Under the pieces are notes generated by a model, which had not been told where the DNA came from, did not search any database, and saw nothing but the letters and a program-made list of their open reading frames with translations. Positions 1,239 through 39,052 of a stretch of 39,093 nt of DNA are shown piece after piece. The stretch lies in sequence record KJ748011; one strand, written 5' to 3'. Position numbers and translations under genes: made by a program. The DNA comes from Escherichia phage PE3-1. Numbering within the stretch: the stretch's first letter is position 1; each line of letters opens with the position of its first letter.

Positions 1239-1277
1239 TTGACAAGCAGTAACGACTTAAAGTAATATGTACCACAT
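1239..1277 (+). promoter_or_regulatory. Sigma70 early promoter (T7 A3-like): -35 TTGACA 1239-1244, 18-nt spacer, -10 TAATAT 1263-1268
   Basis: Consensus -35 and near-consensus -10; downstream GTACCACAT..GAAACGACAGTGAGTC closely matches the recalled T7 A3 region; upstream of ocr. Confidence 0.7.
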
Positions 1278-1471
1278 CGAAACGACAGTGAGTCCCAACA
1301 CTGAAACGGGATAGCACGGCGACGACAGCCAACGCGAATGCTCTTTAACAATCTGGATAAACTCTTAATGTGCGCCGATAGCGACTAACTACAGGGTCTT
1401 TGAGTCTACATCTGAAGGCCCTGACTGATAGTCACTAACACACACACGATTAACTTTGAGAGGATATAACT

Positions 1472-1804
1472 ATGGAACGTAACGCCAATGCATACTATGA
1501 GCTGCTGGCTGCAACCGTTGAGGCATTTAACGAGCGTATTCAGTACGACAAGATAGCTGAAGGTGACGACTACAGCGATGCGCTGCATGAGGTCGTAGAC
1601 GGCAATGTTCCGCACTATTACCACGAGATTTTCACGGTGATGGCTGCTGATGGTATAGACCATGAGTTCGAAGACTCTGGGCTGATGCCTGAGACCAAGG
1701 ACGTAACGCATATACTGCAAGCTCGCATCTATGAGGCGCTGTATATCGACGTGTCTAATAGCTCTGATGTCGTCTGGTTTGAGGCTGAAGAGGGCGACGA
1801 GTGA
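1472..1804 (+). CDS. ocr: Ocr (gp0.3) DNA-mimic anti-restriction protein
   Basis: 110 aa, acidic; motifs [36 protein letters not shown] match T7 gp0.3; first gene after the early promoters. Confidence 0.93.
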
Positions 1805-1953
1805 TGGTAACTTATGGTCTCTGCCAGCACCACGTCACCAACGCCCGGCTTATGGTCAAGACCGGGCAGTTAAACCATGATGCGGCTATGCGTCTCCTGA
1901 AAGCGGTATATGATGGCCGCAAGCGTATACACGACAGCTTATACGCTGAGTGA
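1804..1953 (+). CDS. Small hypothetical early protein (49 aa) at the T7 gene 0.4 position
   Basis: ATG overlaps ocr stop (TGATG coupling); not in the ORF track because under 60 aa; no recognised similarity. Confidence 0.4.
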   Translation: MVTYGLCQHHVTNARLMVKTGQLNHDAAMRLLKAVYDGRKRIHDSLYAE

Positions 1954-2022
1954 TAGACGAGAGGTCAGCTAACTGATAGGTGGCCTCAAAGATTATCACT
2001 TAAATTGATAGGAGTTAACTAA

Positions 2023-2190
2023 TGAAATTTACAGTCATCGCACTTTACATCGCCATCATTCTGTCATGGCTAACTGCGGTCATAGTCGATGGGAATGCAC
2101 TACGTCTTGGCTGGCTGGCAGTGGACATAATATTCTCTCCGGTAGGGGTCGTGCGCGGTCTACTGATGTGGATTGGACTGGCGGGATAAT
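2023..2190 (+). CDS. Small hydrophobic membrane protein (55 aa), hypothetical early protein
   Basis: AGGAG RBS 8-9 nt upstream of ATG 2023; MKFTVIALYIAIILSWLTAVIV forms a transmembrane segment; preferred over the overlapping RBS-less ORF 2066-2266. Confidence 0.5.
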
Positions 2191-2278
2191 CTATGAGTAT
2201 TGGACATTGGGTATGCTTATCTCCGGTCATCTTTCTGATAGCTTGGGGGATATACGACTGTATTAAACGGAAATCGCT

Positions 2279-2476
2279 ATGATATCTGCACTATTGATAG
2301 CCATAGGCTATGGACTTATCGCCTACGTGCTGGTGAGAGACATCAACAAAGCGCGTAAAGTCTACAAATTAAACTATGTACGTCTGGTCCGCTGGACTGT
2401 ACGTCAACCTAACGGACGATTCATGCGCAACTTAGCGAACGTCTGGGATATAGCAACCTTAGGGAGCAAACTGTAA
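2279..2476 (+). CDS. Small hypothetical early protein (65 aa) with N-terminal hydrophobic segment
   Basis: ORF with predicted TM segment LLIAIGYGLIAYVLV; its stop overlaps the next ATG (TAATG coupling). Confidence 0.5.
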   Translation: MISALLIAIGYGLIAYVLVRDINKARKVYKLNYVRLVRWTVRQPNGRFMRNLANVWDIATLGSKL

Positions 2477-2868
2477 TGAATATGTCAAATCTGGTACACG
2501 CACTGGATCAAATCACAGCGCTACGCGCCTTCACCGATAAGAACGGCGTAGAGTGGAAGTACGTCGGCACGGACTCTCGTGGTCGCAACTACTGGGAGGA
2601 GACCGGGAACAAGACTGCTTATGTGCATCGCCACTCGTCACACACCGCACGTCAACAGCAGGAGCGGGACCGTGTACTACAGGCACGACTCCGGGCCGAG
2701 GGCCATAAGTCCGAGCTGATGTGTCTGGCGTATGGTGGACGACCGATCACCGACGATGGTAAACTTCTGGTCTCAGGCTGGAAGGCGATAGACCAACGGT
2801 CAACCATCAAGCACACGACTCATGGTGACTTCAGTCATCTTCACGCTAACCCACTGATATGCAAGTGA
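2476..2868 (+). CDS. Hypothetical early protein (130 aa), no recognisable family
   Basis: GGGAG RBS upstream; occupies the region where T7 encodes 0.5-0.7, but no kinase motifs seen. Confidence 0.6.
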   Translation: MNMSNLVHALDQITALRAFTDKNGVEWKYVGTDSRGRNYWEETGNKTAYVHRHSSHTARQQQERDRVLQARLRAEGHKSELMCLAYGGRPITDDGKLLVSGWKAIDQRSTIKHTTHGDFSHLHANPLICK

Positions 2869-2874
2869 TTCTGA

Positions 2875-2896
2875 CTTAACTATCACTATAGGACTC
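2875..2896 (+). promoter_or_regulatory. Phage RNAP promoter CTTAACTATCACTATAGGAC upstream of gene 1
   Basis: Matches the 11-copy intragenomic consensus; expected TSS at the GG after TATA. Confidence 0.75.
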
Positions 2897-2965
2897 AAGG
2901 TCTAAGACTCCAAGTGAAAGACCAAAGAGACTTTAAGTGAAAGACTAATAACAAGGACTTTAAGT

Positions 2966-5647
2966 ATGAGCGTCATCTCCATTGACAAACACGACTTCTC
3001 TGACGTGTCGAACGCAATTGAGCCGTTTAACCTGCTGGCCGACCACTACGGGCAGGACCTTGCAGTAAAACAGCTTCAGCTTGAGCATGAGGCATACACT
3101 GAAGGCGAGCGACGTTTCATCAAGAACCTTGAGCGCCAGACAGAGCGCGGGGAACTGGCAGACAATCAGGTCGCCAAACCTTTGATGCAGACTCTGGTCC
3201 CTAAGATTGCGCAAGCCGTCAAGGAGTGGCATGAAGGCCCAGACGGGAAGCTGTCAACCTCTCGTCCTAGCGTAGCGTTCACCATGTTGAGCACTGAAGA
3301 GAAGGCCGTAAAGGACCGCTCTCTGCGCATCTCCTGTGAGTCTGCTGCGGTCATCATACTGAAGGTCATCCTCTCCAAGCTGGTCAAGCCTGAAGGTATC
3401 CCGATTACACCGATGGCCTCCGCGATAGGCCGTACACTTGAGGATGAAATCCGCTTCGGTCGCATTCGTGACAAGGAGCAGGAGCACTTCAAGAAGGCGA
3501 TAGCTGAGAACCTGAACAAGCGAGCCGGGGCATCCTATAAGAAAGCCTACATGCAAGCGGTTGAGACCTCCATGCTGGAGCAAGGTCAACTGGAAGATGC
3601 GTGGGGTACTTGGAGTCCGACCGAAGCGGTACACGTTGGCATCAAGATGCTTGAGATTGTCATCCAGTCTACACAACTGGTTGAGCTTAAGCGTTACGGT
3701 GCTGGCAATGCAGCGACTGATGTTGAGATGGTCCACCTGTCAGACTTCTGGGTAAAGAAGATGGCACAACGTGGATTCAGCCTTGCGGGTATTGCGCCAG
3801 TCTATCAGCCTTGCGTCGTTCCACCTAAGCCGTGGACGGGTGTCGTAGGTGGTGGGTACTGGGCCAAAGGTCGCAGACCATTACCACTGATTCGCTTAGG
3901 GTCTAAGTCTGCGGTAGCACGTTACGAAGACGTGTATATGCCTGAAGTCTACGAGGCAGTAAACATCATCCAGAATACACCTTGGAAAGTGAACAAGAAG
4001 GTGCTGGACGTGGTGAACATGGTAGAGAAGCTGAACAATACGCCTATTGATGACATCCCTCAGATGGAACCACTGAAGCCTGAGGACTATGCGGGTGAGA
4101 CCGAGGAGGAACTCAAGGCATGGAAGAAGGCTGCTGCTGGCATCTATCGCCGCGAGAAGGCCAGACAGTCACGCAGATTGTCACTGAGCTTTATCGTCAA
4201 CCAAGCGAATAAGTTCTCTCAGTTCAAGGCCATCTGGTTCCCATACAACATGGACTGGCGCGGTCGCGTCTACGCTGTGCCGATGTTCAACCCTCAGGGT
4301 AACGACATGCAGAAGGGTCTCCTGACTCTGGCAGTCGGTAAGCCTATTGGTGCTGATGGTTTCAAATGGCTGAAGGTCCATGGTGCAAACTGTGCGGGTG
4401 TCGATAAAGTCACCTTCGAGGAGCGCATCAAGTGGGTGGAAGACAACCACGACAACATCATGGCTGCTGCCAAAGCCCCGATGGATAGCATTGAGTGGTG
4501 GGGCAGGTTAGACTCTCCGTTCTGCTTCCTTGCGTTCTGCTTCGAGTATGCTGGCGTAATGCACCACGGCCTGTCTTACTCCTGCTCGCTACCGATAGCG
4601 TTCGATGGGTCCTGCTCTGGGATTCAGCACTTCAGCGCGATGCTTCGTGACCACATCGGTGGACATGCAGTAAACCTGACGCCATCCGGTAAGGTCCAAG
4701 ACATCTACCGCATCGTGTCCGACCGCATTGAGGAGGAGCTTAAAGTCCTGCTGGTTAACGGTACGGACAACGAGATGGTAACTCACGAGGACAAGAAAAC
4801 TGGTGAGATTACCGAACGTCTCAAGCTGGGGACACGAGAGCTGGCCCGTCAGTGGCTGACCTACGGTATGTCACGCAAGGTCACTAAGCGTTCGGTCATG
4901 ACTCTGGCCTACGGGTCGAAAGAGTATGGCTTCGCAGACCAAGTTTACGAGGATATCGTGATGCCAGCGATTGATTCAGGGTCTGGCGCTATGTTCACTG
5001 AACCAAGCCAAGCGTCTCGCTTCATGGCTAAGATGATTTGGGAAGCTGTGAGTGTGACCGTAGTTGCTGCGGTTGACGCGATGAAGTGGCTGCAAGGTGC
5101 TGCCAAGCTGCTGGCTGCTGAGGTGAAGGACAAGAAGACTGGTGAAACCCTGAAGCCTTGCCTTCCGGTACACTGGGTCACACCTGATGGTTTCCCTGTC
5201 TGGCAGGAATACCGCAAGAAGGATACTACTCGTCTGAACCTTATGTTCCTAGGGTCATTCAACCTTCAGCCTACAGTCAACAAAGGCACTAAGAAGGAGC
5301 TGGACAAGCACAAGCAGGAGTCAGGCATTAGCCCGAATTTCGTCCACTCGCAAGATGGTAGCCACCTCCGCAAGACTGTAGTCCACACGCACCGCAAGTA
5401 TGGCGTGATGTCATTCGCAGTGATTCACGATAGCTTTGGGACCATCCCGGCTGACGCTGAATATCTGTTCCGTGGCGTCCGTGAGACGATGGTTGAGACC
5501 TACCGAGACAACGATGTGCTGCTTGACTTCTACGAGCAGTTTGAATACCAGCTACATGAGAGTCAGCGCGACAAGCTGCCTGAGCTTCCGAAGAAAGGTA
5601 AACTGAATATCGAAGACATCTTGTCTTCAGACTTTGCATTCGCTTAA
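2966..5647 (+). CDS. 1: Single-subunit DNA-dependent RNA polymerase (T7 gp1 family)
   Basis: 893 aa, collinear with T7 RNAP along its length (e.g. FPYNMDWRGRVYAV, LPLAFDGSCSGIQHFSAMLRD, FALIHDSFGT, C-terminal SDFAFA). Confidence 0.98.
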   Translation: MSVISIDKHDFSDVSNAIEPFNLLADHYGQDLAVKQLQLEHEAYTEGERRFIKNLERQTERGELADNQVAKPLMQTLVPKIAQAVKEWHEGPDGKLSTSRPSVAFTMLSTEEKAVKDRSLRISCESAAVIILKVILSKLVKPEGIPITPMASAIGRTLEDEIRFGRIRDKEQEHFKKAIAENLNKRAGASYKKAYMQAVETSMLEQGQLEDAWGTWSPTEAVHVGIKMLEIVIQSTQLVELKRYGAGNAATDVEMVHLSDFWVKKMAQRGFSLAGIAPVYQPCVVPPKPWTGVVGGGYWAKGRRPLPLIRLGSKSAVARYEDVYMPEVYEAVNIIQNTPWKVNKKVLDVVNMVEKLNNTPIDDIPQMEPLKPEDYAGETEEELKAWKKAAAGIYRREKARQSRRLSLSFIVNQANKFSQFKAIWFPYNMDWRGRVYAVPMFNPQGNDMQKGLLTLAVGKPIGADGFKWLKVHGANCAGVDKVTFEERIKWVEDNHDNIMAAAKAPMDSIEWWGRLDSPFCFLAFCFEYAGVMHHGLSYSCSLPIAFDGSCSGIQHFSAMLRDHIGGHAVNLTPSGKVQDIYRIVSDRIEEELKVLLVNGTDNEMVTHEDKKTGEITERLKLGTRELARQWLTYGMSRKVTKRSVMTLAYGSKEYGFADQVYEDIVMPAIDSGSGAMFTEPSQASRFMAKMIWEAVSVTVVAAVDAMKWLQGAAKLLAAEVKDKKTGETLKPCLPVHWVTPDGFPVWQEYRKKDTTRLNLMFLGSFNLQPTVNKGTKKELDKHKQESGISPNFVHSQDGSHLRKTVVHTHRKYGVMSFAVIHDSFGTIPADAEYLFRGVRETMVETYRDNDVLLDFYEQFEYQLHESQRDKLPELPKKGKLNIEDILSSDFAFA

Positions 5648-7553: not shown

Positions 7554-7944
7554 GGTTGACCGGACGGCTCCTTCGGGAGTCTCCAACCTGAAGGGTAAAC
7601 ACTTAGGTTATCGACGCAAGGACGGCTACTGGATTATAAACACAACCAAGGGTCAACTCCTTGCCCACCGGGTAGTCTGGGAGCTAACTCACGGTCCGAT
7701 ACCGGAAGGAATGGTTATTGACCATATAAACAGAGACCCTTCTGATAACCGCATTGAGAACCTAAGGTGTGTGACTCAGGCAGTGAACCTGACGAACGTC
7801 GCCGTCCGTAGCCACTGCAAGTCTGGCGAGAAGTATATTAACTTTGAGCCAAGGACTGGTCGCTGGCAACTGAGGATAAAGCGTAAGTCATACGGTACGT
7901 TCGCTACCATAGCCGAGGCGGTAGCCTTAAGAGATTCATTATAA
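7483..7944 (+). CDS. HNH homing endonuclease with C-terminal AP2-type DNA-binding domain
   Basis: HRVVWELTHGPIPEGMVIDHINRDPSDNRIENLR plus AP2-like GRWQLRIKRKSYGTFATIAEAVALR; start at ATG 7483 with GGAGGAG RBS, overlapping the ligase 3' end by 71 nt (track ORF 7330 extends upstream in the same frame). Confidence 0.85.
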   Translation: MEVCDIRHSTSGEGLRTILQSRFKVDRTAPSGVSNLKGKHLGYRRKDGYWIINTTKGQLLAHRVVWELTHGPIPEGMVIDHINRDPSDNRIENLRCVTQAVNLTNVAVRSHCKSGEKYINFEPRTGRWQLRIKRKSYGTFATIAEAVALRDSL

Positions 7945-8846: not shown

Positions 8847-9001
8847 CTGAGGTTGAGAAGAAATACATCGTGGAGCTTGAGGGTCGAGTTCAGTCCTTCG
8901 AGGTTCCGGTGTACGCAAAGTCTCTTGAAGAGGCTACCCTGAAGTCCCAAGAGTATGAGGACGCTGGGTTTGTGGTAGGACGGATTCGTCCTGAGACTTA
9001 A
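8843..9001 (+). CDS. 2: gp2-like inhibitor of host RNA polymerase
   Basis: 52 aa; [25 protein letters not shown] parallels T7 gp2; GGAG RBS 8 nt upstream. Confidence 0.8.
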
Positions 9002-11863: not shown

Positions 11864-13692
<1,829 letters not shown>

Positions 13693-38509: not shown

Positions 38510-39052
38510 ATGAGTAAACAGAAGGCCATCGACAGGGTGGCCCTCTTTAATCACTATGCTTATGTAGATGGTGAGTTGGTGTGTAGGAAACCTTATAAAG
38601 GATCTCGCAAGAAGCCCGGTGAGGTAATGGGACATTCAGTTCATCCGTCTGGGTACGCAATCGTGAAGGTTCTTGGCAGTCGGTATAGACGTGCCAGAAT
38701 CATCTACAGCCTAGTCGTTGGTCGAATACCTTCTGGCATGATGGTTGACCATATCAATGGTGATAGACTTGATGACAGGCCGGATAACTACAGGTTAGTA
38801 ACAGCATTAGAGAACCGATGGAACTCAGGAGGTGGCGATACTAATGGTCTACCCAAAGGTATCAGCTTTTTCAAGCCTACCGGAAAGTATCGCGCTCAGT
38901 TGCGCCTAAAAGGTAAGTGCTTCACGAAGACCTCAGATTCCATAGAGGAACTAGAGGTGTGGCTTGATGCTTTACGCACTGAGAAGCACAAGGAATACGC
39001 AGTAAACCGACGGTCCCCTAAGCGTGATAGGACCCATAGAAACCACAAGTAA
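38510..39052 (+). CDS. HNH homing endonuclease with AP2-type DNA-binding domain (second HNH-AP2 copy)
   Basis: 180 aa; GMMVDHINGDRLDDRPDNYRLVTALEN plus AP2-like GKYRAQLRLKGKCFTKTSDSIEELEVWLDALR; strong GGAGGAGG RBS. Confidence 0.88.
   Translation: MSKQKAIDRVALFNHYAYVDGELVCRKPYKGSRKKPGEVMGHSVHPSGYAIVKVLGSRYRRARIIYSLVVGRIPSGMMVDHINGDRLDDRPDNYRLVTALENRWNSGGGDTNGLPKGISFFKPTGKYRAQLRLKGKCFTKTSDSIEELEVWLDALRTEKHKEYAVNRRSPKRDRTHRNHK

Follow-up and report, generated by a model that had tools for sequence, protein, structure and literature searches.

A diverged gene of the T7 Gp0.4 type predicted among the five small early genes of the K1F-like Escherichia phage PE3-1

The Gp0.4 protein of phage T7 binds FtsZ, blocks cell division and causes filamentation, and its action is suppressed by ftsZ9. 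Alanine substitutions at V15, V22, W28, M32, L35 or Y39 remove the toxicity of T7 Gp0.4, and the substitution W28L alone is enough to abolish FtsZ binding (PMC13423816). A bacterial defence that senses Gp0.4/FtsZ, CapRel-Ebc, was described in 2026 (PMC13423816). Cells infected with phage K1F form filaments with about four Z-rings per cell, in which the function of the Z-ring is blocked (PMC9372555). The authors of that study, from 2022, stated that K1F is without gene 0.4, and called the responsible peptide unknown and probably novel (PMC9372555). When we searched the literature on gp0.35-0.38, on the function of T3 gp0.6 and on the early genes of Kayfunavirus, we found no functional studies.

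We analysed a stretch of 39,093 nucleotides from Escherichia phage PE3-1 (KJ748011), here called the window, with emphasis on the small genes between ocr and the RNA polymerase gene. The window is that of a K1F-like Kayfunavirus, and across positions 1400-3000 it differs by a single base from Escherichia phage JSS1 (species Kayfunavirus PE31). The first-pass annotation had read four ORFs in this block, of 49, 55, 65 and 130 aa, and all of them are found there, but the number of genes is five, as an ORF of 29 aa fills the space between the 55-aa and 65-aa ORFs (Table 1). This arrangement is shared with other genomes. It has already been deposited, with the genes annotated as hypothetical proteins, and is the usual Kayfunavirus layout of K1F, EcoDS1 and PE3-1/JSS1. 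The ORFs match gp0.35-0.38 of K1F and gp0.35, 0.6 and 0.38 of EcoDS1, and the genes of K1F, EcoDS1 and PE3-1 (PE3_004/PE3_006) are direct orthologues with 78-95% identity, alike in their order and in the downstream promoter. The relatives differ in content, however: K1F lacks the 29-aa ORF and has a short gp0.38 of 86 aa, whereas the window has the 29-aa ORF and a long gp0.38, and EcoDS1 lacks the 55-aa ORF, whereas the window has both the 55-aa and the 29-aa ORFs.

Table 1. Position of the early genes and signals in the window.
Feature	Position	Strand	Remarks
Candidate sigma-70-like promoter, TTGACA-18-TAATAT	1239..1268	+	Best upstream match, 10/12; consensus match only
Gene 0.3, Ocr DNA-mimic anti-restriction protein, 110 aa	1472..1804	+	Left border; Pfam PF08684 ocr, E 2.5e-32
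49-aa ORF, K1F/EcoDS1 gp0.35, predicted diverged member of the T7 Gp0.4 family	1804..1953	+	ATG overlaps ocr stop by 1 nt
Hairpin, predicted orthologue of the T7/T3 RNase III processing site R0.5	1947..2002	+	MFE -24.7 kcal/mol
55-aa ORF, K1F gp0.36, very hydrophobic	2022..2189	+	phrog_7319, E 8e-25, full length
29-aa ORF, predicted single-TM micro-protein	2193..2282	+	Stop overlaps 65-aa start (ATGA)
65-aa ORF, K1F gp0.37, EcoDS1 "gp0.6", CR8 gp0.71	2279..2476	+	phrog_2385, E 1.9e-31
130-aa ORF, gp0.38, predicted soluble basic protein	2476..2868	+	
Phage RNA polymerase promoter	2874..2896	+	Immediately downstream of gp0.38, upstream of gene 1
Gene 1, single-subunit RNA polymerase, 893 aa	2966..5647	+	Right border; ORF list

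The stretch 1804-2868 is probably the standard class I early block of a K1F-like phage, transcribed by the host RNA polymerase and with a Gp0.4-type gene in first place. Its layout would be the one common with T7 and T3, which runs from host promoters over ocr and a Gp0.4-type gene, the two overlapping at stop and start, to the R0.5 hairpin, and would then continue with small membrane proteins in series, one soluble protein, a phage promoter and gene 1. The promoter match upstream of ocr is a candidate counterpart of the A-type host promoters of T7 and EcoDS1, and in EcoDS1 gene 0.3 is preceded, at equivalent distances, by three annotated host RNA polymerase promoters. Ocr itself matches phrog_2568 (E 1.2e-52) and is 53% identical to T7 Ocr. 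At the other end of the block, the phage promoter core ACTATCACTATAGG finds an exact match at 2879-2892, as it does at eight further intergenic sites of the window; the equivalent 23 nt in EcoDS1 are annotated as a phi promoter, and the RNA polymerase of JSS1, an identical protein, carries PF14700 and PF00940. The earlier description of a host-transcribed early block in which most products are without demonstrated function thus agrees with what we found.

The hairpin is clearly more stable than expected from its composition (z = -3.94; none of 200 shuffled sequences folds equally well), and its alignment with the same region of T7 and with the T3 stem-loop annotated as "RNase III recognition site R0.5" has 28 invariant columns. 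A search of the whole window against Rfam gave no matches. The spacer of 68 nt between the 49-aa and 55-aa ORFs (1954-2021) contains this R0.5-like hairpin, and the tight coupling that had been proposed for the ORFs does not extend to this pair. From the 55-aa to the 130-aa ORF, on the other hand, translational coupling is indicated by the short distances, which are 3 nt, a 4-nt overlap and a 1-nt overlap. Judged by their conservation, all ORFs of the block are real genes: the phage records that contain them number between 52 and 680 per ORF, and most dN/dS values for the more diverged pairs lie under 0.5. Scans of all five ORFs with NCBIfam and with a copy of Pfam that lacks PF26807 gave nothing above the curated cut-off, and the same was true for PDB sequence searches with the gp0.38 family profile and with the 49-aa and 65-aa ORFs.

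By sequence, the 49-aa ORF belongs to the T7 Gp0.4 family. The Pfam family PF26807 (Phage_T7_GP04) is assigned to the identical 49-aa protein of JSS1 and to 74 of 74 relatives; these are precomputed Pfam matches, and that of JSS1 is unmarked, which means E <= 1e-5. Matches to PHROGs are reciprocal, with the 49-aa ORF matching phrog_7202 (7.9e-5) and T7 gp0.4 matching phrog_5058 (9e-5), and BLASTP aligns 41 aa of the ORF directly with T7 gp0.4 (39% identical, E 5e-6). Gp0.4 of phage CR8 forms a bridge, being 57% identical to T7 gp0.4 and 37% identical to the 49-aa ORF, and a family HMM places the gene 0.4 ORFs of T7 and CR8 at ranks two and three of 579 six-frame ORFs. The length is similar to that of T7 Gp0.4 (49 vs 51 aa), and the gene has the same position, after ocr and upstream of the R0.5-like hairpin; its ATG at 1804 overlaps the TGA of ocr, just as in T7 the last base of gene 0.3 is the first base of gene 0.4. 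It had been claimed that T7 genes 0.4-0.7 are replaced here by four unknown ORFs, and that a gp0.7-type kinase or ordinary T7 0.4-0.6 homologues in profile searches would speak against this. No kinase was found, but a homologue of T7 0.4 is present, by Pfam, PHROG and position, so that the claim fails in part on its own terms.

Five of the six residues of the FtsZ interface are identical in the 49-aa ORF (V11, V18, M29, L32 and Y36), and each of the five is at least 90% invariant across the 75 members of the family. The sixth position, W28 in T7, is His25 here, and is His in 71 of the 75 members. The face that contacts CapRel-Ebc has diverged, with K36 as the only identical residue of six, and the protein is basic (pI 9.4) where T7 Gp0.4 is acidic (pI 4.7), a reversal of charge that may mean a binding mode or a target different from that of T7 Gp0.4. 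As K1F blocks the Z-ring by means of a protein that has not been named, and its gp0.35 falls in the Gp0.4 family, gp0.35 is the obvious candidate. We suggest that the 49-aa product, like T7 Gp0.4, would bind monomeric FtsZ through its conserved hydrophobic face, made up of the five retained residues, and that FtsZ bound in this way would leave the Z-ring without function and give rise to the multi-ring filaments of K1F infection. Since the opposite face is so different, recognition by the Gp0.4-sensing CapRel-Ebc is not expected.

The next two genes encode small hydrophobic proteins. The 55-aa ORF has TM-like segments at aa 1-24 and 29-55 according to KD hydropathy, is preceded by AGGAG 8 nt upstream of its ATG, and is found in 52 phage records with a patchy distribution among relatives. 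In the JSS1 record it is frameshifted. The 29-aa ORF has a hydrophobic segment at aa 1-24 and was found by tblastn in 93 phage records, many GenBank records leaving it unannotated; its counterpart in Providencia phage EPr2 is annotated as a transmembrane protein, and a comparison of the ORF with PHROGs gave no match. T7 gp0.5 is also small, very hydrophobic and encoded by the first gene after R0.5, but what it shares with the 55-aa and 29-aa ORFs is position and composition only: the best BLASTP match between T7 gp0.5 (phrog_16572) and the 55-aa ORF covers 9 residues with E 0.58, and their PHROGs differ.

The 65-aa ORF is, on sequence comparison, a homologue of gp0.6 of T3 and Kvp1. The BLASTP matches are to T3 gp0.6 (E 7e-9, 42% over 65 aligned positions) and Kvp1 gp0.6 (E 4.5e-11, 39%), and the likeness to gp0.6 of T3, Kvp1 and phiYeO3-12 includes the length, the predicted N-terminal TM helix and a basic tail with the motif RxxNGRF. 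The hydrophobic segment covers aa 1-20 and the pI is 11.0, compared with aa 1-19 and 10.5 in T3 gp0.6. Across Studiervirinae, 680 phage records contain the gene. Its downstream neighbours differ: T3-like phages have gp0.65 and the gp0.7 kinase after gp0.6, whereas the window has gp0.38 after the 65-aa ORF. T7 gp0.6A/B, an MreB inhibitor, is unrelated; its counterpart is Kvp1 gp0.62, and a comparison of T7 gp0.6A (phrog_8393) with the window ORFs gave no BLASTP match below E 10, the PHROGs also being different. The label "gp0.6" in EcoDS1 thus follows T3 nomenclature and does not refer to the T7 MreB inhibitor. Among the ORFs that had been described as unknown, the 49-aa and 65-aa ORFs can consequently be assigned to families, while the description stands for those of 55 and 130 aa; the prediction of TM segments in two of the four holds for the 55-aa and 65-aa proteins.

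The last gene, gp0.38, is a narrow orphan without detectable relatives or a known fold. The protein has a variable N-terminal extension (aa 1-45), which most family members lack, a conserved core (aa ~46-130) and an invariant HTTxGDFSHLH motif. Three helices are predicted in the core, with no fold match, and the structure prediction of the full-length protein was unusable (pLDDT 59). The gene is found in 222 phage records, and an exhaustive profile search gave 14 clusters in 1.8 billion proteins; two long matches, of about 1,590 aa and in several stretches, have the look of coiled-coil noise. The codons of GDFSHLH vary synonymously, and the motif is retained in CR8 with different codons, which indicates a constraint at the protein level. 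The DNA of the last seven codons (ANPLICK), in contrast, is near-invariant and changes with the promoter type in CR8, and is probably constrained by, or recombining with, the adjacent promoter.

The absence of a protein kinase, as pointed out in the first-pass annotation, is confirmed. We found no match between the window ORFs and the kinase families of Pfam and PHROGs (among them phrog_2828 and phrog_15752), and the best tblastn match of T7 gp0.7 in the whole window has E 0.41. This is the majority state in the genus, with about 47 phage records having a short kinase of the Dev2 type against 222 with gp0.38. A gp2 homologue is present at 8855-8992, so shut-off of the host RNA polymerase would not need gp0.7 in this phage.

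Dev2, SFPH2 and CR8 have a truncated kinase of 242-244 aa upstream of genes in the order small-TM, gp0.6-like and gp0.38, although no similarity could be detected between the 34-aa small TM ORF of CR8 and the 29-aa ORF, and other relatives have different small ORFs in the slot upstream of the module. The trio of 29-aa, 65-aa and gp0.38 genes is probably a fixed module that adjoins the gene 1 promoter across the clade, with the genes upstream of it (ocr, gp0.35, and gp0.36 or a short kinase) being swapped in and out. The three putative membrane peptides of 55, 29 and 65 aa are conserved, as is the presumably soluble and helical gp0.38, and the four are probably translationally coupled early products.

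Several other explanations have to be weighed against this picture. The 49-aa protein could have the ancestry and fold of Gp0.4 but have been retargeted, with FtsZ binding lost or altered, and the division block would then be due to another early protein of the K1F type, a membrane peptide or gp0.38. The replacement by His of a Trp that T7 Gp0.4 needs for FtsZ binding fits such a change, as does the reversed net charge, and the divisome and the elongasome are common targets of small membrane proteins; T7 gp0.6 has MreB as its target. We nevertheless consider it rather unlikely, because the remaining five residues of the interface are identical and almost invariant, whereas the face that does not contact FtsZ has drifted freely, which is the pattern expected if the FtsZ interface is retained, and because Z-ring function is indeed inhibited by K1F, a carrier of gp0.35. 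It is very unlikely that the small ORFs, in particular those of 29 and 55 aa, are only chance open frames in a spacer. They are indeed very short and without a family of known function, the 29-aa ORF lacks a PHROG and is often unannotated, and the 55-aa ORF has few records and the frameshift mentioned above. In 11 related genomes, however, the former is intact, with exactly 29 codons, an ATG start and a Shine-Dalgarno site; dN/dS has a median of 0.25, with dS values up to saturation, and the latter matches its PHROG from end to end, with a dN/dS of 0.33 against ST31 and a strong ribosome-binding AGGAG; the close spacing that indicates translational coupling also speaks for genes.

That gp0.38 is a remnant of gp0.7 or a stand-in for it, either a decayed kinase or a free-standing C-terminal shut-off domain, seems extremely unlikely to us, even if it occupies the slot of T7 gene 0.7 as the last early gene directly before gene 1 and is basic and helical like the C-terminal region of gp0.7. 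Compared with T7 gp0.7 as a whole, only the position is shared, and no kinase or shut-off domain is detectable in the window. As a relative of the C-terminal shut-off domain (the PF27024 region), gp0.38 was rejected by hhalign with a probability of 0.2%, against a gp0.7 C-terminal alignment that is shallow (6 sequences, the homologue search having given 10 mostly fragmentary proteins). The first 16 residues resemble the N-terminus of T7 gp0.7 (7/16 identical, E 0.04-0.07 in a tiny database), but this is not significant, the extension that contains them is the part that most family members are missing, gp0.38 has no kinase match in PHROGs or Pfam, and CR8, Dev2 and SFPH2 encode the kinase and gp0.38 as separate genes; a kinase remnant was rejected on these grounds. 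The module of 29-aa, gp0.6-like and gp0.38 genes could instead be a unit for anti-defence or superinfection exclusion and not for takeover of host metabolism. It lies in the earliest-expressed region, which adjoins the anti-restriction gene ocr and is mosaic with a fast turnover, and two of its three products are predicted to be membrane-anchored. On the other hand, we saw no similarity to known anti-defence proteins in searches made without a dedicated anti-defence library, and almost the whole clade has the module, a distribution that is not patchy and that is unusual for counter-defence genes, so this reading appears unlikely. Quite unlikely, taken jointly, is the boldest combination: that the trio is a single new device for host takeover or counter-defence, and that, separately, the His-for-Trp variant of Gp0.4 is a natural escape form. 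The two membrane proteins could then work with gp0.38 and its invariant motif, the trio could have been retained throughout Kayfunavirus and Caroctavirus, with a kinase or not, and the escape form could inhibit FtsZ and yet evade immunity that senses Gp0.4, such as CapRel-Ebc.

Most of the block is ordinary for the genus, and the link to Gp0.4 is the one lead that is directly testable. Apart from it, the analysis corrects the record: there are five genes and not four, a predicted 29-aa membrane protein is widely unannotated, the label "gp0.6" has been clarified, loss of the kinase is normal in the genus, and gp0.38 is an orphan. The 49-aa gene and K1F gp0.35 give a specific candidate for the FtsZ inhibitor of K1F, against the reported lack of gene 0.4 in that phage (PMC9372555). 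The divergence of the opposite face predicts an escape from CapRel-Ebc (PMC13423816), and if this is true, it would be a case of natural immune evasion in which the takeover function has been kept.

By its sequence, PE3-1 is a K1F-like relative of T7, and its early region has already been deposited and annotated several times. A megablast search with positions 1400-3000 gave phage JSS1 (KX689784.2, species Kayfunavirus PE31) as the best match, 99.9% identical along the whole query, followed by K1F, EcoDS1, SH3 and some 240 other records, the top-ranked of which are 88-94% identical. The early genes are named 0.3, 0.35, 0.36, 0.37, 0.38 and 1 in the K1F record, and 0.3, 0.35, an extra ORF, 0.6, 0.38 and 1 in that of EcoDS1; JSS1 labels them hypothetical proteins, and a published table includes PE3-1 proteins of 55 and 130 aa among the best matches of the SH5 orthologues. 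Within this interval JSS1 differs solely by one additional G in the run near 2144, GGGGG (about 1330 in that record) against GGGG in the window (2141-2144). The extra G shifts the frame of the 55-aa ORF and gives an 81-aa product annotated 'hypothetical protein'. Since the window version agrees end to end with K1F gp0.36 and with phrog_7319, the 81-aa form probably reflects either a sequencing error in the homopolymer or a frameshift of recent origin.

The first-pass annotation placed four ORFs of 49, 55, 65 and 130 aa between ocr and the RNA polymerase gene, and they do lie there, together with a fifth, of 29 aa, that it missed. The four look like real genes; they are kept in 52 to 680 phage records, and most of the more diverged comparisons give dN/dS values of 0.1-0.5. 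As a whole the block is the ordinary class I region of a Kayfunavirus, on the T7/T3 plan, in which a candidate host promoter would be followed by ocr, the Gp0.4-type gene, the R0.5 RNase III hairpin, small membrane proteins, gp0.38, the phage promoter and gene 1. Among relatives, the part that precedes the 29-aa ORF is a mosaic, and the trio of 29-aa, gp0.6-like and gp0.38 genes is fixed.

Early features of PE3-1 and related sites, in window coordinates
Feature	Position	Remark
ocr (gene 0.3)	1472-1804	Pfam ocr, E 2.5e-32
49-aa ORF	1804-1953	from the ORF list
55-aa ORF	2022-2189	from the ORF list
29-aa ORF	2193-2282	between the 55-aa and 65-aa ORFs
65-aa ORF	2279-2476	from the ORF list
130-aa ORF (gp0.38)	2476-2868	from the ORF list
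Phage promoter	2874-2896	abuts the 3' end of gp0.38
RNA polymerase gene	2966-5647	893 aa
gp2 homologue	8855-8992	
ACTATCACTATAGG-type promoter core sites	5955, 8027, 9002, 17634, 20455, 21451, 26132, 33408, 39071	

The tight coupling ascribed to the ORFs holds for the 29-aa ORF, which starts 3 nt past the 55-aa stop codon and overlaps the 65-aa start in ATGA, and breaks down after the 49-aa ORF, where there is a 68-nt spacer. This spacer forms a strong hairpin (-24.7 kcal/mol, z = -3.9) that aligns, with 28 invariant columns, with the stem-loop called 'RNase III recognition site R0.5' in the T3 record and with the corresponding T7 region. The 29-aa ORF of most relatives lies directly 3' of the hairpin, in a shared 'ataggagttaact' ribosome-binding context; the 55-aa ORF, found in only 52 records, is inserted before it in the window, ST31 and ZG49 (ZG49 by tblastn coordinates only), and takes its place in K1F. 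Translated matches to the 29-aa ORF occur in 93 phage records, frequently without annotation there. It has an ATG, a Shine-Dalgarno sequence and exactly 29 codons in the 11 genomes examined, its median dN/dS is 0.25 and its product is hydrophobic. Two of the originally listed ORFs do carry membrane-like segments, as had been predicted: two hydrophobic ones in the 55-aa product and an N-terminal one in the 65-aa product. The 29-aa and 55-aa ORFs are interchangeable cassettes for small membrane proteins, in the slot of T7 gp0.5, which is hydrophobic as well, although no sequence similarity to gp0.5 is detectable. In EcoDS1, an annotated 47-aa 'unknown product' ORF (1493-1636 of that genome) crosses the R0.5 hairpin in another frame and overlaps the conserved, unannotated 29-aa ORF (1563-1652), and was probably called in error; other records that leave the 29-aa gene without annotation include those of Dev2, SH3, Pipis, SFPH2 and ST31.

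The claim that the block has no counterparts of T7 or T3 early genes fails for two of the ORFs, the 49-aa one being a Gp0.4 homologue and the 65-aa one resembling T3 gp0.6 (42% identical over its length, E 7e-9) and Kvp1 gp0.6 (39%, E 4.5e-11), with which it shares equal length, an N-terminal hydrophobic helix and a basic tail. The 65-aa ORF is present in 680 phage records, Klebsiella KP32-like phages among them. T7 gp0.6 is an inhibitor of MreB. The 65-aa ORF is unrelated to T7 gp0.6A, the counterparts of which are Kvp1 0.62 and T3 0.65, and the label 'gp0.6' in EcoDS1 therefore does not denote the MreB inhibitor. Our literature search found no functional study of the T3-type gp0.6.

In the family alignment of gp0.38, with length forms of 83, 86, 108, 130 and 139 aa, 84 residues make up a strongly conserved core, and indels make the N-terminal part variable; PHROG 7066 spans solely residues 44-130. 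When 1.84 billion representative proteins were searched exhaustively with a family profile, relatives turned up in 14 clusters, essentially all of them small phage proteins. AlphaFold2 modelled the full protein poorly (pLDDT 59), and the core, with a more diverse alignment, as three helices and a low-confidence tail (pLDDT 79). Within the conserved C-terminus, the GDFSHLH motif varies synonymously and persists in CR8 with different codons, so that its constraint is on the protein, whereas the terminal ANPLICK codons adjoin the phage promoter and show almost no DNA variation, and so are probably constrained at the DNA level. For residues 1-45 (2476-2610), a helix and a beta-hairpin are predicted (pLDDT about 75), and this stretch contains a conserved DSRGRxYW motif. 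This extension is present in about 19 phage records only and is gained or lost by in-frame indels, giving forms of 100, 108, 115, 122, 130 and 139 aa.

The absence of a kinase was confirmed, as neither Pfam nor PHROGs gave a kinase family for any early ORF, and tblastn with T7 gp0.7 over the whole 39 kb reached a best E of only 0.41. That gp0.38 is a substitute for the kinase is very unlikely. Its first 16 residues have a weak likeness, below significance, to the N-terminus of gp0.7; hhalign against the C-terminal gp0.7 alignment was null, and CR8, Dev2 and SFPH2 encode a separate kinase of 242-244 aa in addition to gp0.38, followed downstream by the small-TM, gp0.6-like and gp0.38 trio. This short kinase is found in about 47 phage records (at least 60% identity) against 222 for gp0.38, so that lacking a kinase is the usual state of the clade, and the gp2 homologue can account for inhibition of the host RNA polymerase. 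The 'protein kinase' CDS of IME177 (MZ398247.1, 1573-2076) encodes no kinase but an Ocr homologue, with 87% identity to Ocr of the window across 110 aa, a database misannotation that could mislead kinase surveys of the genus. Uncharacterised host-directed functions were rightly placed in the early block, and no computation run gave a pointer to the mechanism of gp0.38 or of the 55-, 29- and 65-aa products.

Elsewhere in the genome, the non-coding left end has tandem repeats (739-904), a 16-nt unit AACCATAGGTCTCAAC in 6.2 copies (739-837) and then a 44-nt unit twice; the CR8 record annotates comparable repeats at its own left end. Eight more sites carry the phage promoter core ACTATCACTATAGG exactly, and two of the tabulated positions carry single-mismatch variants, which gives a promoter map of the genome. 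Because one copy is just 10 nt away from the right end, the ends of the record may differ from the true genome ends by circular permutation. Regions like the T7 gp3.8 HNH endonuclease at 7666-7869, 11876-12005 and 38687-39001, of which two lie away from the canonical place of 3.8, suggest extra or fragmentary homing-endonuclease genes.

The assignment of the 49-aa ORF to Gp0.4 draws on reciprocal profile matches, a bridging protein and gene order. Besides its own phrog_5058 it matches phrog_7202 (7.9e-5) and phrog_25044, and T7 gp0.4 in turn matches phrog_7202, phrog_25044 and phrog_5058 (9e-5). BLASTP aligns the two proteins over 41 residues (39% identity, E 5e-6), and CR8 gp0.4, annotated as T7-0.4-like, is 57% identical to T7 gp0.4 and 37% to the window protein. 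The synteny with T7 is exact: the stop of ocr overlaps the start of the 49-aa ORF, and R0.5 is next. Membership is already captured by Pfam's new family PF26807, which is named Phage_T7_GP04 for the identical JSS1 protein in that contig's gene table and is carried by 74 of 74 database relatives (precomputed Pfam). In a scan of 579 six-frame ORFs with a gp0.35-family HMM, the gene 0.4 ORFs of T7 and CR8 ranked second and third with weak scores, behind a short non-coding Kvp1 frame. That frame, YGLLQFHPKSATLMVTYGLLN in the terminal repeat of Kvp1 (1-120), slightly outscores T7 gp0.4; the match is most likely due to chance and illustrates the weakness of HMM scores for 50-aa families.

A 2026 study showed that T7 Gp0.4 binds monomeric FtsZ, that each of V15A, V22A, W28A, M32A, L35A and Y39A abolishes its toxicity, and that A12, T14, L16, S19, R23 and K36 are required solely for recognition by the defence protein CapRel-Ebc (PMC13423816). 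In our alignment the 49-aa ORF keeps five of the toxicity residues, V15, V22, M32, L35 and Y39 (as V11, V18, M29, L32 and Y36), each at least 90% invariant in the family of 75 members, and on the CapRel face K36 alone is identical. A kept FtsZ face and a diverged opposite face is the pattern expected if FtsZ binding has been retained. The position of W28 is a nearly invariant His25 in the gp0.35 family, and the charge is reversed (pI 9.4 versus 4.7 in T7 Gp0.4); both are real caveats on FtsZ binding by the 49-aa protein.

Dhanoa et al. (2022) showed that cells infected with K1F become filaments with about four Z-rings. According to the authors, K1F 'lacks the 0.4 genes', and BLAST found nothing similar to kil or gp0.4; of the inhibitory peptide they wrote that it 'is currently unknown' (PMC9372555). 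Given this gap, and the 78% identity of K1F gp0.35 to the window protein, we lean towards gp0.35, and with it the orthologous 49-aa ORF, as this Z-ring inhibitor. The recognition of the K1F-type gp0.35 as a diverged Gp0.4 with a preserved predicted FtsZ-binding face is the one result with some reach.
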